Of a DNA stretch of 64,000 nt, positions 284 to 27,022 are shown piece after piece. Under the pieces are notes generated by a model, which was not told where the DNA came from, did not search any database, and saw nothing but the letters and a program-made list of their open reading frames with translations. The position numbers and the translations under genes were made by a program. Numbering within the stretch: the stretch's first letter is position 1; every line of letters starts with the position of its first letter. The stretch comes from a virus (Duplodnaviria > Heunggongvirae > Uroviricota > Caudoviricetes): IMG/VR virus record IMGVR_UViG_2667527592_000002, one strand, 5' to 3'.

Positions 284-359
284 GGCCCTTTAGCTCAGTG
301 GTTAGAGCAGGCGACTCATAATCGCACGGTCACCGGTTCAAATCCGGTAGGGGCCACCA
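284..359 (+). tRNA. tRNA with CAU anticodon (Met or Ile2/lysidine type)
   Basis: 76 nt cloverleaf read by hand: acceptor GGCCCTT/AGGGGCC, D-arm GCTC-AGTGGTTA-GAGC, anticodon loop CTCATAA, T-arm ACCGG-TTCAAAT-CCGGT, encoded CCA. Confidence 0.9.
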
Positions 360-5178: not shown

Positions 5179-6216
5179 TTACCAGAGCTTCGCGGCGTAC
5201 TGCGTTTGGGGGAATGTGTATCCGTAACGTTCTTCGATTGCTTTGCCGTATTTTTTACGAGCTTCATTCAGTTTAATGCCGGTCAGGTCGTCTCCAGAGG
5301 CCATCATTACCTCTAACAATTCCAGATCCATTTTATCCAGCCTTGCCATTGCTTCACGTGATGTACGTATCTTACGCTCAATGATATGGCGAATAGCCGG
5401 ATCGGCATCCTCCAGCATCTTAGCGGATTTCTGCTTAAGGCTTTCATTGCGAATATCGATGTTCCTTAAGATGTACGACTTCGCAACGTAGCTTGGCTGG
5501 TGTTTTTCCAGGTCACGAACACGATATAAGTTAAAATCGCCGAGAAGGCTGCAAGGTACCGATTCGACGCCAGAATAAATTGTAATGCTCCGGCGTTCAC
5601 CAACATTATTGACAACGGGGATCGTTGTCTTCGGTAGTCTTGCGAAAACCAATGCGCCATGTGCGCCAACTCTAAAGCGAGAAAGGGCATTGCTGCCTTC
5701 GATGTTTGTTGTCAGCACAACATCTGTATATGCCTCTTTACGCGCCCGGTAGATCTCGCCTTCAGGCTCAGCTTCAAAGAAGCGCTGTTCTTCTTCAAGA
5801 GCGCCTACGATTTGAGAAAAAACCCTATTTTTCAGGCTTTTCTTTATGATTTTGTCGTATTTTTTGAGCAATTGTTCACGTGTAAATGTACGTGTTGTTG
5901 TAGCGCTTTGCACAACAACATGCGTGCTTTGATTGGTGTCCTCAATGATGAATGGGATCGGAGAATATACAGACTCAACAATGTTCGACGCTTTGCCGTC
6001 GGCATCGCGGCACATGTCAACGAAGGCTTTCCATTCAGCAAGACATTTTTCAGCTTCTTCTAATATGTTTTGGTCATGCGTTAATGCAACATGGCGGAAT
6101 TCCTCGCCAGCATAACTGGTATCATGGAAAACAGAGTTTGCGACCACCAGCTCTTTCCACCGTTCAGCGGTTTGCAGGAACCGTTTGTACTCTTTCTCGA
6201 TCGACTTCTTACTCAT
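5179..6216 (-). CDS. hypothetical protein (345 aa); candidate lysogeny regulator by position
   Basis: ORF track; ATG with AGGA RBS; operator-like motif 16-33 bp upstream; sits between terminase and lox-cre. Confidence 0.55.
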   Translation of the reverse strand: MSKKSIEKEYKRFLQTAERWKELVVANSVFHDTSYAGEEFRHVALTHDQNILEEAEKCLAEWKAFVDMCRDADGKASNIVESVYSPIPFIIEDTNQSTHVVVQSATTTRTFTREQLLKKYDKIIKKSLKNRVFSQIVGALEEEQRFFEAEPEGEIYRARKEAYTDVVLTTNIEGSNALSRFRVGAHGALVFARLPKTTIPVVNNVGERRSITIYSGVESVPCSLLGDFNLYRVRDLEKHQPSYVAKSYILRNIDIRNESLKQKSAKMLEDADPAIRHIIERKIRTSREAMARLDKMDLELLEVMMASGDDLTGIKLNEARKKYGKAIEERYGYTFPQTQYAAKLW

Positions 6217-24416: not shown

Positions 24417-24995
24417 ATGCAGAAACAGAGCTATTGGGAGAAACAGAGACAAAAAGCCATGCAAAAATTGGCTGACCCGGCCTGGCGAGAGGAACAAAGG
24501 GCAAAGCGCCTTCAACAAGCTCAACGCCAGCAGCAGCGAGCGAGAGAAAAAGCCGCATCGCCTGAATATCGGCAAAAAAAAATTGAAAAAGCAAAGCAAT
24601 ATGACCAGCGGAGAAAAGAGAAAGCTGTATCCGCTCCGTCCAAAAAAACACGCACGTCACGCGGCCTGAAGGGCAGATCACTCACAGCCGATGAGCGCCG
24701 GATACAGACCGCTATCGGTACTCTCCCCTGCATTGCCTGCCATATTCACGGGCAACATAGCCCAGTAGTATCCCTGCACCATATCTTCGGGAGAACGGCA
24801 GAGAACGCGCATAAATATGTCCTCCCTTTGTGTAAATGGCACCACCAGTACGCAGCGCCAGCCGAGGTCCGAGAACAATATCCCTGGCTGGTCCCTGTTC
24901 ATGCTGATGGAAAAATAGGCGGAAAAGCAGATTTCATACGGCACAATGCCGATGAAATGGCGTTGTATCAGATGGCAATTGAATTGATAAATTAG
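24417..24995 (+). CDS. Ref-like HNH-motif protein with basic disordered N-terminus
   Basis: 192 aa; K/R/Q-rich N-terminal half, C-terminal CIACHIHGQH ... HHIFG ... CKWHH; resembles P1 Ref architecture. Confidence 0.5.
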   Translation: MQKQSYWEKQRQKAMQKLADPAWREEQRAKRLQQAQRQQQRAREKAASPEYRQKKIEKAKQYDQRRKEKAVSAPSKKTRTSRGLKGRSLTADERRIQTAIGTLPCIACHIHGQHSPVVSLHHIFGRTAENAHKYVLPLCKWHHQYAAPAEVREQYPWLVPVHADGKIGGKADFIRHNADEMALYQMAIELIN

Positions 24996-25010: not shown

Positions 25011-25326
25011 AGTTGAATTGAAAATTTCTCCGATGTACATTCACTACCGATTGGCACACCGGTCAACTTTTTGAGACAAACTATTTAGTTTTTCGTATTA
25101 TTGCCGCCGCCATACCTATGGCGGTGCAATATAGGTGGCTGAAAAGCCCCCGTTGACTCACGGTGTTCCAGCCTTTATTGCGCCGCCACCAGACCGTGGA
25201 ACAGTCGATGGCGGCTCCGAAAGCAAGGAGTCACTACACTATGAACAACTACAGTCTTTTCCCATCACTCGTCGTCCACCACTCACGCGATAATCTGCAT
25301 TCTTTACTCGCGCTGGGGGTGTCAAA

Positions 25327-25494
25327 ATGACTGTTCGCTACCTCAACTTTCAAATCAAGAACATTACTGGCGGTTGCTATGACTGGTTTGTCACTCTCGG
25401 AAAAGAAGTGATCACCGGGAAGCTGGATGAAGTGAAAGCTAAAGCAATGGCCTACGCCTGCAAGCAAGCCCGGAAAAAATCCGCCAAAGCATAA
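25327..25494 (+). CDS. small hypothetical protein (55 aa)
   Basis: Hand-translated MTVRYLNFQIKNITGGCYDWF...; followed by terminator; below track cutoff. Confidence 0.35.
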   Translation: MTVRYLNFQIKNITGGCYDWFVTLGKEVITGKLDEVKAKAMAYACKQARKKSAKA

Positions 25495-25597
25495 AATACT
25501 GACTGTTGCGCCCTGGCATTATCGTGGGGTATATTTCTACGGCACCTTAGAAAAACGGGTGCCGGGATTGGAACCCCGGATAATGCAAAAGGCGACA

Positions 25598-25622
25598 CAG
25601 ACGCCGAAAGCGTCTTTTTTTG
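25598..25622 (+). terminator. rho-independent terminator (GACGC-CGAAA-GCGTC then T7)
   Basis: 5-bp GC-rich stem, 5-nt loop, seven T. Confidence 0.6.
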
Positions 25623-25806
25623 TGTCATGCCATCGCACAGCCATACGTAGCGTTTAGCTCAGAGATCAATGGTAGTGCTGGCTGGGCTGCCGAAAGGCAG
25701 GCCGGTTCCCTTTTGCGCCGGTAGTTCCAACCCAGTCAGTGCTACCGCCATTGAGATTGGAACCTCACGCGGTAGCTCCTTAAATTAGCAAAAGGAGGCT
25801 GCCAAT
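25623..25806 (+). ncRNA. candidate structured regulatory RNA (immI/c4-like position)
   Basis: GAAA-tetraloop hairpin CTGCC-GAAA-GGCAG; repeats CGGTAGTTCC / CGGTAGCTCC; inverted GTTCCAA / TTGGAAC; immediately upstream of icd-like RBS. Confidence 0.25.
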
Positions 25807-26022
25807 ATGGCTACTATCCCTACCCCAACTCATTCTGAATTTATCTGGCGTTTCTATTCCTGCCAAAAACACCTGTATATCTGCGTAATGGCTGCTACCG
25901 AAGCAGAAGCTCGTTCATACCTTCCTGAAGAACCCTGCATTTTTGCCGCACGCTTCACTCTTGATGCGATGGAGATCCTCAATTACTGGAATCTGCCGAT
26001 GAACTGCGTGGAGGTGCACTGA
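25807..26022 (+). CDS. small protein overlapping antirepressor start (Icd-like position, 71 aa)
   Basis: Strong RBS AAGGAGG; stop overlaps next start (TGATG). Confidence 0.45.
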   Translation: MATIPTPTHSEFIWRFYSCQKHLYICVMAATEAEARSYLPEEPCIFAARFTLDAMEILNYWNLPMNCVEVH

Positions 26023-26963
26023 TGAATCTGCCCATCTCTCGCAAAGCGACAATGACCAGTATTGAGATCGCGAAACTGGTGGGAAGTCGTCACTCTGATG
26101 TTAAACGCAGCATCGAAAGACTTGTTGCTAAAGGTGTTATCCAACATACGCCATTGGCTACAGTTGAGAATAATCAATCACTTAGCCCTAATAAATACAC
26201 AAAAGCCTATGTCTTCGAAGGCGAACAAGGCAAACGAGACAGTATCATTGTCGTCGCACAGCTCTCTCCGGAATTCACCGCCCGGCTGGTGGACCGCTGG
26301 CGCGAACTGGAGAATGCCAGGGGACCGTTAAAATCAAAAGCCGAAATCCTGGCTGAAATGGCGCAAATGCATCTTGAGCATGAACGCCGGATCAACGCCG
26401 TAAATGCCCAGGTAGCCGAGGTATCAGCACAAGTATCGATGGTTGCTGAAACACTCGAGCAAATAAAGAAAGGCAATATTCCGGAAGGCTACATTGGCTA
26501 CCGCCAGCTGGCGGCGAAATGCGGCCTGACTGAAGCCAAATGCCGAAACCTGGTCAACGCTTACCGGATTCCCACCGATACGCATGAGTTTTTAACTCCA
26601 GATGGTTTGCTTGCGCGACGCTCCATTGTGGCCCTGGCCCCCTTCCGGAAAGCCTTTAAGCAGGTGATGTCGGAGGCAGAACCACGCAATAAACGCTGGT
26701 ATCATCCAAAGATGGGGATGTTTCAGGCAATCCACCATCCTGTGCCTGAAAGCCCAAAGGATAATCTGTCACTACATACCGCCAGAGAGAAGATCAGGAC
26801 TGGATACGCAACAGTGTGTCGTCGTTCTTCCTGGCCTGAAGGTGTATGGGTATGGCCCGAAGGTGGATCACGAAAGCACTGGCGCACCATCCGGGACGGA
26901 AAAATCCATGCTATTGATTTAGCTCCAAAGGATGTTATTGCTATGGACTGGATTGTTAGTTAA
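26022..26963 (+). CDS. Rha-family phage regulatory protein / antirepressor-like
   Basis: N-terminal TSIEIAKLVGSRHSDVKRSIERL matches Rha-domain pattern; 313 aa. Confidence 0.7.
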   Translation: MNLPISRKATMTSIEIAKLVGSRHSDVKRSIERLVAKGVIQHTPLATVENNQSLSPNKYTKAYVFEGEQGKRDSIIVVAQLSPEFTARLVDRWRELENARGPLKSKAEILAEMAQMHLEHERRINAVNAQVAEVSAQVSMVAETLEQIKKGNIPEGYIGYRQLAAKCGLTEAKCRNLVNAYRIPTDTHEFLTPDGLLARRSIVALAPFRKAFKQVMSEAEPRNKRWYHPKMGMFQAIHHPVPESPKDNLSLHTAREKIRTGYATVCRRSSWPEGVWVWPEGGSRKHWRTIRDGKIHAIDLAPKDVIAMDWIVS

Positions 26964-27022
26964 ATGCTGCATCCCCGGCGACTCCGGGGATTTAACTGCC
27001 AAATAATCGGATTATCCGCACG

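Follow-up and report, generated by a model that had tools for sequence, protein, structure and literature searches.

A C4 antisense RNA and an IsrK-type small RNA ahead of icd and a Rha-type antirepressor gene: a probable immI-type operon in a D6-like prophage

In phage P1, a stable C4 RNA of about 77 nucleotides (nt) is cut from the transcript of the immI operon, with RNase P making its 5' end, and the differences between the a and b boxes of P1 and those of P7 underlie the heteroimmunity of the two phages. We analyzed a 64,000-nt stretch of viral DNA (IMG/VR record IMGVR_UViG_2667527592_000002, Caudoviricetes; hereafter, the whole stretch is called the window), in which C4 and an IsrK-type small RNA (sRNA) precede a homologue of icd and a Rha-type antirepressor gene. 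The GenBank record of P1 annotates a1, b1, c4, a2, b2, icd, and ant, and describes the binding of C4 as repressing the translation of icd-ant. P1 Icd binds FtsZ and stops Z-ring formation, and P1 Ant binds the C1 repressor. For the isrK-orf45-anrP locus of the Salmonella prophage Gifsy-1, IsrK supplied in trans was found to raise the translation of the antirepressor by a factor of more than 100; compensatory mutants (G28A/C162U and G31A/C159U, which lie by position in a1 and a') confirmed the a1/a' helix there, and orf45 proved to be conserved in nucleotide sequence but not in amino-acid sequence. C4 and IsrK stand as separate, unlinked entries in a 2025 review. For the D6-like plasmid pYU39_89, published work already describes c4, icd, and an antirepressor gene in a region related to immI.

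The module in the window shares with immI of P1 and P7 the order of promoter, a1/b1, C4, a2/b2, icd, and an overlapping antirepressor gene, as well as the Rfam family of C4 and the position of b2 on the ribosome-binding site of icd. The antirepressor differs (ANT/KilAC type in P1, Rha type in the window), and no P1-type C1 operator was found, as the window contains no copy of the P1 operator consensus even when up to three mismatches are tolerated. Whereas kilA-repL follows in P1, tblastn with P1 KilA, RepL, and RlfA detected no homologue in the whole 64-kb window (E <= 0.01), and the statement of an earlier first-pass annotation that no kilA-repL follows thus holds across the window. Gifsy-1 and the window have in common an IsrK-type sRNA (with a predicted terminator in the window), a C4-family element, and an antirepressor gene, in an arrangement in which read-through would make a long mRNA (we set this correspondence by position, from the published nucleotide numbers). 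Gifsy-1 as described lacks icd and the open reading frame (ORF) inside C4 abuts the antirepressor gene, whereas icd is interposed in the window. The closest relative is phage D6, which has the same gene order (ref, orf86, orf85, c4, icd, ant, and a pmgF-like gene) and aligns to 73% of positions 14000-38000 of the window with an identity of 94.9%; the identity is 90.7% over 25500-27000 and 97% in the leader alone. Most of the region is present in about 96 plasmids of Escherichia coli, Salmonella, and Shigella, and plasmid hits numbered 455 in all. The window as a whole is a D6-like (P1-family) plasmid prophage, and we regard the module as very probably the immI-type secondary immunity operon of this prophage. 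By analogy with the P1 family, the C4 switch would keep a cell-division inhibitor and an antirepressor silent in lysogeny. The features of the module are as follows.

25506-25535, plus strand: putative module promoter read from the sequence (TTGCGC at 25506-25511, an 18-nt spacer, and TATATT at 25530-25535), ending 6 nt 5' of the IsrK-like RNA
25542-25620, plus strand: IsrK-type sRNA (a1/b1 element); Rfam RF01394 (isrK) is matched over its full length with 62.5 bits (gathering score, 50)
25568-25574, plus strand: a1 box TTGGAAC in the loop of IsrK hairpin 2, identical to a2
25585-25592, plus strand: b1 box GCAAAAGG, identical to b2
25599-25615, plus strand: stem of the predicted intrinsic terminator of the IsrK-type sRNA (consensus scan), followed by a T run to about 25622
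25665-25752, plus strand: C4 antisense RNA; match to all 87 positions of the Rfam model RF01695 with 76.7 bits (gathering score, 45; E 3e-13)
25687-25700, plus strand: C4 hairpin 1, CTGCC-GAAA-GGCAG, with a GAAA loop
25709-25716, plus strand: C4 b' box CCTTTTGC (RNA, CCUUUUGC) in the loop of hairpin 2
25724-25730, plus strand: C4 a' box GTTCCAA (RNA, GUUCCAA) in the unpaired junction
25757-25763, plus strand: a2 target box TTGGAAC, complement of a'
25769-25776, plus strand: GCGGTAGC (RNA, GCGGUAGC), complementary to GCTACCGC (RNA, GCUACCGC) at 25741-25748, the 3' strand of the C4 stem
25788-25795, plus strand: b2 target box GCAAAAGG, complement of b', overlapping the icd Shine-Dalgarno sequence AAGGAGG at 25792-25798
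25807-26022, plus strand: homologue of the cell-division inhibitor gene icd, 71 amino acids (aa); 49.4 bits with the NCBIfam model phage_ICD_like (NF033153; cut-off, 25); PHROG 1426, E 4e-41
26022-26963, plus strand: Rha-type antirepressor gene, 313 aa; N-terminal residues 11-98 match Pfam PF09669 (Phage_pRha) with 32.3 bits (gathering score, 29.9), and the protein matches PHROG 63 'anti-repressor Ant' with an E of 2e-59

The Rfam scan of the whole window gave three matches over the curated thresholds, namely tRNA-Met, C4, and isrK, and the latter two were full-length, on the same strand, and 44 nt apart (25 nt between a1b1 and C4 in P1). The first-pass annotation, made from the letters alone, had proposed an antisense RNA of the c4 type, pairing with a target of its own further 3', based on elements that are all present in the sequence at the positions given, and had named a covariance search and RNA folding as checks. 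Both agree with the proposal: the C4 model is matched over its full length and well above its threshold, and the minimum free energy (MFE) of the C4 fold is -46.4 kcal/mol with a z of -5.5. The fold comprises a 17-bp closing stem around two 5-bp hairpins. We compared the window with 23 further loci (24 in total, with isrK/a1b1 and C4 placed by Rfam), which came from D6, P1, P7, three other P1-like phages, five D6-like plasmids, Shiga toxin (Stx) and lambdoid phages, phiV10, ST64B, and phages of Klebsiella and Enterobacter. Covariation was counted in an alignment of 12 sequences, in which the 15 box pairs amount to 180 cells. All three C4 helices were 100% paired in the 12 sequences; of their 13 compensatory pairs, 8 lie in the 17-bp helix, 4 in the first 5-bp helix, and 1 in the second.

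The pairing of C4 with the leader of its own operon was conserved without exception. For a'/a2 and b'/b2, standard pairs were found in 100% of the 180 cells and 10 of the 15 pairs were compensatory, the covariation score between C4 and target being 0.725 as against 0.177 in shuffles; slid controls were paired in 23-48% of cells. The corresponding values for a1/a' and b1/b' were 99.4% of cells paired and 10 compensatory pairs. Twelve different alleles of the a box occurred in the 24 loci, and a1, a', and a2 match perfectly at each of them (all 7 pairs). The complements of GTTCCAA and CCTTTTGC were found in the right order 3' of C4 in none of 5000 shuffles, and in order inside the IsrK-like RNA likewise in 0 of 5000. 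The predicted b'/b2 duplex (-12.4 kcal/mol) is more stable than those with non-cognate targets (-3.6 to -7.5 kcal/mol), and cognate duplexes were the most stable ones in a cross matrix of duplex energies. All of the loci examined have b2 overlapping the Shine-Dalgarno sequence. The first-pass annotation had seen a'/a2, as the inverted pair GTTCCAA/TTGGAAC, and this part of its scheme stands; it had missed b'/b2, the stronger pairing, which covers the Shine-Dalgarno sequence.

The IsrK-type sRNA folds as three hairpins, and exact copies of both C4 target boxes lie within it; it is thus a likely decoy for C4. The sister Rfam model c4-a1b1 (RF03163) scored 22.4 bits on the element of the window against a gathering score of 46.7, and the reverse was found for P1 and P7, in which c4-a1b1 scored above the threshold and isrK below. 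Therefore, we take the two models as two branches of one element. The putative promoter occupies the place of P1c4 (formerly P51b) annotated in P1, and TTGACT, TTGATT, or TTGACC with TATATT, TACACT, or TATAGT stand at the same position in other loci. The consensus promoter scan left 25506-25535 unflagged, since the -35 hexamer matches the consensus at only three of six positions. The module had been reported to begin at 25623; the start lies about 115 nt further 5', with the putative promoter and the IsrK-type sRNA carrying a1/b1. An IsrK-type sRNA in the a1/b1 place of a canonical c4-icd-ant operon joins the work on P1, in which C4 blocks a2/b2, with that on Gifsy-1, in which IsrK activates, and supports the reading of IsrK as a target mimic of C4.

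Both proteins downstream fall in curated families. The first-pass annotation had called a 71-aa Icd-like ORF, whose stop overlaps the start of the antirepressor gene, and a Rha antirepressor, and both labels are upheld by the matches listed above. The Icd homologue is identical to P1 Icd at 62.7% and to D6 orf83 at 97% of positions, and its TGA (26020-26022) overlaps the ATG of the antirepressor gene (26022-26024) in TGATG. The antirepressor gene has a GGAGG of its own at 26009-26013, and its 313-aa product corresponds to D6 orf82, 'anti-repressor Ant'. P1 Ant1 has PF03374 (ANT/KilAC), whereas the protein of the window has PF09669. Across phages, the isrK-C4 cassette precedes ANT, ORF6N, Rha, or Bro-N proteins, with icd present or not, and behaves as a portable control unit.

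From P1 and Gifsy-1, we propose the following course of events. Transcription would start at about 25542 from the promoter at about 25506-25535, and most transcripts would end at the intrinsic terminator (about 25599-25621), giving the IsrK-type sRNA of about 80 nt. Read-through transcripts would carry C4 (25665-25752) and, as in P1, release it by cleavage as a stable RNA. If mature C4 matches its 77-nt homologue in P1, it would span about 25671-25749 (about 79 nt), and CC.CCA, conserved in the alignment behind the 3' half of the C4 stem, is the sole sequence-level hint of the excision. The boxes of C4 would then pair with the leader of their own operon: a' (GUUCCAA) would bind a2 (UUGGAAC), and b' (CCUUUUGC) would bind b2 (GCAAAAGG), which lies on the Shine-Dalgarno sequence of icd. 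This would block the translation of icd. The antirepressor gene overlaps icd (UGAUG), so its expression would drop as well, and premature termination is added to this in P1. The IsrK-type sRNA, through a1 and b1, would titrate C4 and thereby switch the operon on, as for IsrK in Gifsy-1. Once expressed, Icd would arrest cell division and the Rha-type protein would counteract the C1-like repressor of the phage. Our data directly show to which families the two RNAs and the two proteins belong, which boxes are complementary, and that these covary; RNA processing, the translational block, the decoy action, and the antirepressor activity are in this scheme carried over from the two known systems.

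Several points weigh against this reading. The Phage_pRha score is marginal (32.3 against 29.9 bits), and the 313-aa protein has no homology to P1 Ant1/Ant2, as tblastn gave no match and BLASTP reached an E of only 0.01 over 67 aa. No candidate C1 operator was found at the module promoter (25497-25541). For this element, all that lies beyond the sequence level depends on homology, and the authors of the Gifsy-1 study attribute the action of IsrK to alternative cis structures and the translation of the ORF inside the C4 homologue, not to the titration of a processed antisense RNA. Applied to the window, their model would have the C4-like element act chiefly in cis, within the long mRNA, and a1 in the leader lock a' in an inactive fold until the short IsrK displaces it in trans, upon which a 39-aa ORF (25669-25788, plus strand) would be translated and ribosomes would pass on to icd and ant. 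The 39-aa ORF begins at a conserved AUG within C4 (C4 position 5) and ends 18 nt 5' of the icd AUG, near enough for re-initiation. The start of orf45 at nucleotide 107 of the Gifsy-1 transcript corresponds to the same AUG; a tagged orf45 product was detected, and full translation of the antirepressor required the orf45 start codon. This AUG is invariant in all of the 24 loci and the a1/a' pairing is conserved, as the model would have it, but the AUG lies within the strongly covarying closing stem of C4, which by itself explains its conservation. The length of the leader ORF varies over the 24 loci (14 aa in P1, 15 aa in Tyrion, 31 aa in P7, and 35-39 aa in others, or an in-frame fusion to the next gene), so that conservation does not extend to translation into the next gene. 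Moreover, a2/b2 covary with C4 as precisely as a1/b1 do, although a cis switch built on a1 alone would not require this, and a processed 77-nt C4 RNA is annotated in P1. We therefore hold the cis switch to be possible but clearly the less probable account. The two models are not exclusive of each other, and translation of the leader ORF as a regulatory device is a live, non-exclusive rival to the antisense reading.

Control could also be exerted at the level of transcription, if a C4-type RNA pairing with a1/b1 and a2/b2 caused premature termination, like CI RNA with seqA/seqC in phage P4. The Gifsy-1 authors call SeqA of P4 a structural homologue of IsrK and raise the termination option; in Gifsy-1, a transcriptional fusion rose 8-fold when IsrK was supplied in trans, and a1/b1 lies directly 5' of a predicted intrinsic terminator in the window. 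The translational effect in Gifsy-1 was, however, 139-fold as against 8-fold, the overlap of b2 with the Shine-Dalgarno sequence, common to all loci examined, suggests that translation is what is primarily blocked, and termination secondary to lost icd translation would look the same. Thus, we consider P4-type control unlikely. The last account, that the leader codes for a small protein and that its RNA features are secondary, bears on the claim of the first-pass annotation that about 180 bp of non-coding sequence precede icd: the length is right (25623-25806, 184 nt), but the leader is not free of ORFs. The RefSeq pipeline (Prokaryotic Genome Annotation Pipeline, PGAP) names an identical 39-aa ORF 'ash family protein' in sister E. 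coli plasmids, its translation matches several PHROGs, and D6 carries the minus-strand orf84 over the same DNA. The length of the 39-aa ORF is, however, unconserved, with the frame cut short inside C4 in P1 and Tyrion, no NCBIfam model matched it at E <= 0.1, and substitutions obey the rules of base pairing. The PHROG matches lie in the N-terminal parts of 'regulator' families, likely because regulator coding sequences (CDSs) have been called across isrK/C4, and orf84 is split in the window into pieces of 58 aa and 30 aa. The leader ORF is not conserved as a protein, neither 'ash family protein' nor orf84 looks real, and this last account is highly improbable.

Public annotation often puts protein genes over these RNAs (noted at 25669-25788 of the window, plus strand; L014 1838-1957; and L001 5953-6252, minus strand). 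Besides 'ash family protein' and D6 orf84, N-terminally extended Rha genes belong here, as a Rha or regulator CDS is called across isrK and C4 in the records of several Stx/lambdoid phages. The D6 record annotates orf83 as Icd-like and orf82 as Ant, with no RNA genes at this place and orf84 instead. A module of this kind is already known, as both RNA families are curated in Rfam, the protein names are publicly annotated, and the c4-icd-antirepressor region of a D6-like element is published; the biology thus adds little. A reader working without tools can recognize a P1-type antisense immunity module from the sequence alone.

The leader between C4 and icd contains further pairing. The helix of 25769-25776 with 25741-25748 was paired in 94.8% of cells with three compensatory pairs (slid controls, 32-58%), and the MFE fold of 25736-25812 contains it as a hairpin. 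In the unprocessed transcript, this hairpin could show a2 in its loop, as a1 is shown in the IsrK-type RNA. The first-pass annotation also listed a direct repeat in the leader, with CGGTAGTTCC at 25719-25728 and CGGTAGCTCC at 25770-25779 (plus strand) matching at 9 of 10 positions. The repeat is present but at chance level, as 63 of 300 shuffled versions of the leader (21%; 184 nt, dinucleotide shuffling) had one as good, and is not a repeat in other phages; we rejected it as a functional element. Perfect inverted repeats of at least 7 nt arose in 146 of 300 such shuffles. The second copy is better explained by the C4 stem: it can pair with the 3' strand there, as the 5' strand does, and for this reason looks like that 5' strand (GGUAG here, GGUGG in other phages) and not like the segment of hairpin 2 and a'. 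Separately, CUCCUU at 25776-25781 can pair with AAGGAG (25792-25797) of the icd Shine-Dalgarno sequence in the MFE fold of the leader. This hairpin was seen in D6-type leaders only, not in other phages.

The a box of the window differs from that of D6 at all three sites (UUGGAAC/GUUCCAA in the window, UUGAGAC/GUCUCAA in D6), while the b box is shared. The combination of alleles in the window was also found in the E. coli plasmid NZ_CP031917 and in IMG/VR contigs. Two a-alleles (GGAAC and GAGAC) and two b-alleles (GCAAAAGG and GTCAAAGG) occur in all four combinations in D6-like and P1-like elements (L001, L003, L014-L018, L024-L056), each matched at three sites, and a third a-allele, UUGGUCU (DNA, TTGGTCT), occurs on a different C4 backbone (L025, L050, L054). 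As all four combinations and the third a-allele are found, recombinational shuffling of antisense/immunity specificities is suggested. By predicted energy, the a box of C4 in the window has -8.8 kcal/mol on its own a2 and -2.3 kcal/mol on a2 of D6, whereas that of D6 discriminates weakly (-7.8 kcal/mol on a2 of the window, -9.1 kcal/mol on its own). The shared b box would still pair between elements of the window type and of the D6 type. The a/b-box alleles of D6-like plasmids are ready natural variants for tests of antisense heteroimmunity. Two P1-like phages, JL22 (L002) and RCS47 (L003), carry a D6-type isrK-C4-icd-ant cassette elsewhere in the genome, between pacB and c1, 88-95% identical to the leader of the window. 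One IMG/VR contig (L035, 2579778873_000001, about 1740-1800) has a deletion that fuses a1 to the sequence 3' of a2 (both TTGGAAC), with the rest of IsrK and the whole of C4 gone. Its icd ATG is now ATC and the region downstream is rearranged, and this looks like the decay of an operon following the loss of antisense control.

Upstream of the module, the window holds a second, C4-like module and, at a distance, a C1-like repressor gene.

25073-25494: second, divergent C4-like module
25073-25078 and 25096-25101: promoter-like hexamers of this module, GAGACA and TATTAT
25114-25193: second C4-like RNA; 40.2 bits with Rfam C4, short of the threshold (gathering score, 45), with an E of 1.7e-5 when 3.2 kb were searched; fold z -4.6
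25197-25203: a2 of the second module, TGGAACA (RNA, UGGAACA)
25228-25233: b2 of the second module, GAGTCA (RNA, GAGUCA), on the Shine-Dalgarno sequence of a 29-aa ORF
25241-25330: 29-aa ORF, overlapping the ATG of the next ORF
25327-25494: 55-aa ORF of unknown function
5506-6198, minus strand: distant homologue of P1 C1, 21% identity, E 3e-6
1799, 6232, 6318, 7642, 19735, 24339, 24993, 35975, and 45905: the nine sites of TAGTTTTCTAACA in the window

Both complements of the second C4 occurred in order in 1 of 5000 shuffles. No compensatory pair was found among the five variants available, the changes being one-sided ones that keep the pairing. The promoter hexamers are conserved in relatives with a spacer of variable length, and the ORF behind the second C4 is Icd-like in one IMG/VR relative (L047). 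We rejected an a1/b1-like decoy 5' of the second C4 (UGGCACA and GAGACA, each one base off a2 or b2), because UGGCACA varies in relatives while a'/a2 is constant and GAGACA is the conserved -35 hexamer. The a' box of the second C4 (GUUCCA) matches a1/a2 of the main module in the window, not in D6, and the two tiers could thus cross-talk. It is conceivable, and we suggest it only tentatively, that the immunity region of the D6 type is a two-tier antisense system, in which the second C4 gates a small ORF and the 55-aa protein, with possible cross-talk and a/b-allele shuffling.

The motif TAGTTTTCTAACA was obtained from a k-mer count, and two copies of it flank the C1 homologue. Further copies of the motif lie in the promoter region of ref and, just 5' of the second module, where ref ends. 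It is absent from 25497-25541 around the IsrK promoter, the nearest copy being that at 24993. From this distribution, we regard TAGTTTTCTAACA as a candidate operator of a D6-type C1. No homologue of P1 Coi was found in the window.

The gene after the antirepressor gene is pmgF-like. Between the two, read from the sequence, there is one further element.

26973-26989, plus strand: stem-loop CCCCGG-CGACT-CCGGGG 3' of the ant stop, without a strong T run

The terminator scan did not flag this stem-loop, which may mark the end of the operon. Two Stx-type phages, GER2 (L009 2223-2306) and Ss-VASD (L013 2216-2299), have a match to Rfam sRNA-Xcc1 (RF02221; 79.6 bits against a gathering score of 53) just 3' of the Rha-type gene behind isrK-C4. 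Far from the module, the tRNA-Met gene of the window (284-359, anticodon CAT) was called by both ARAGORN and Rfam.

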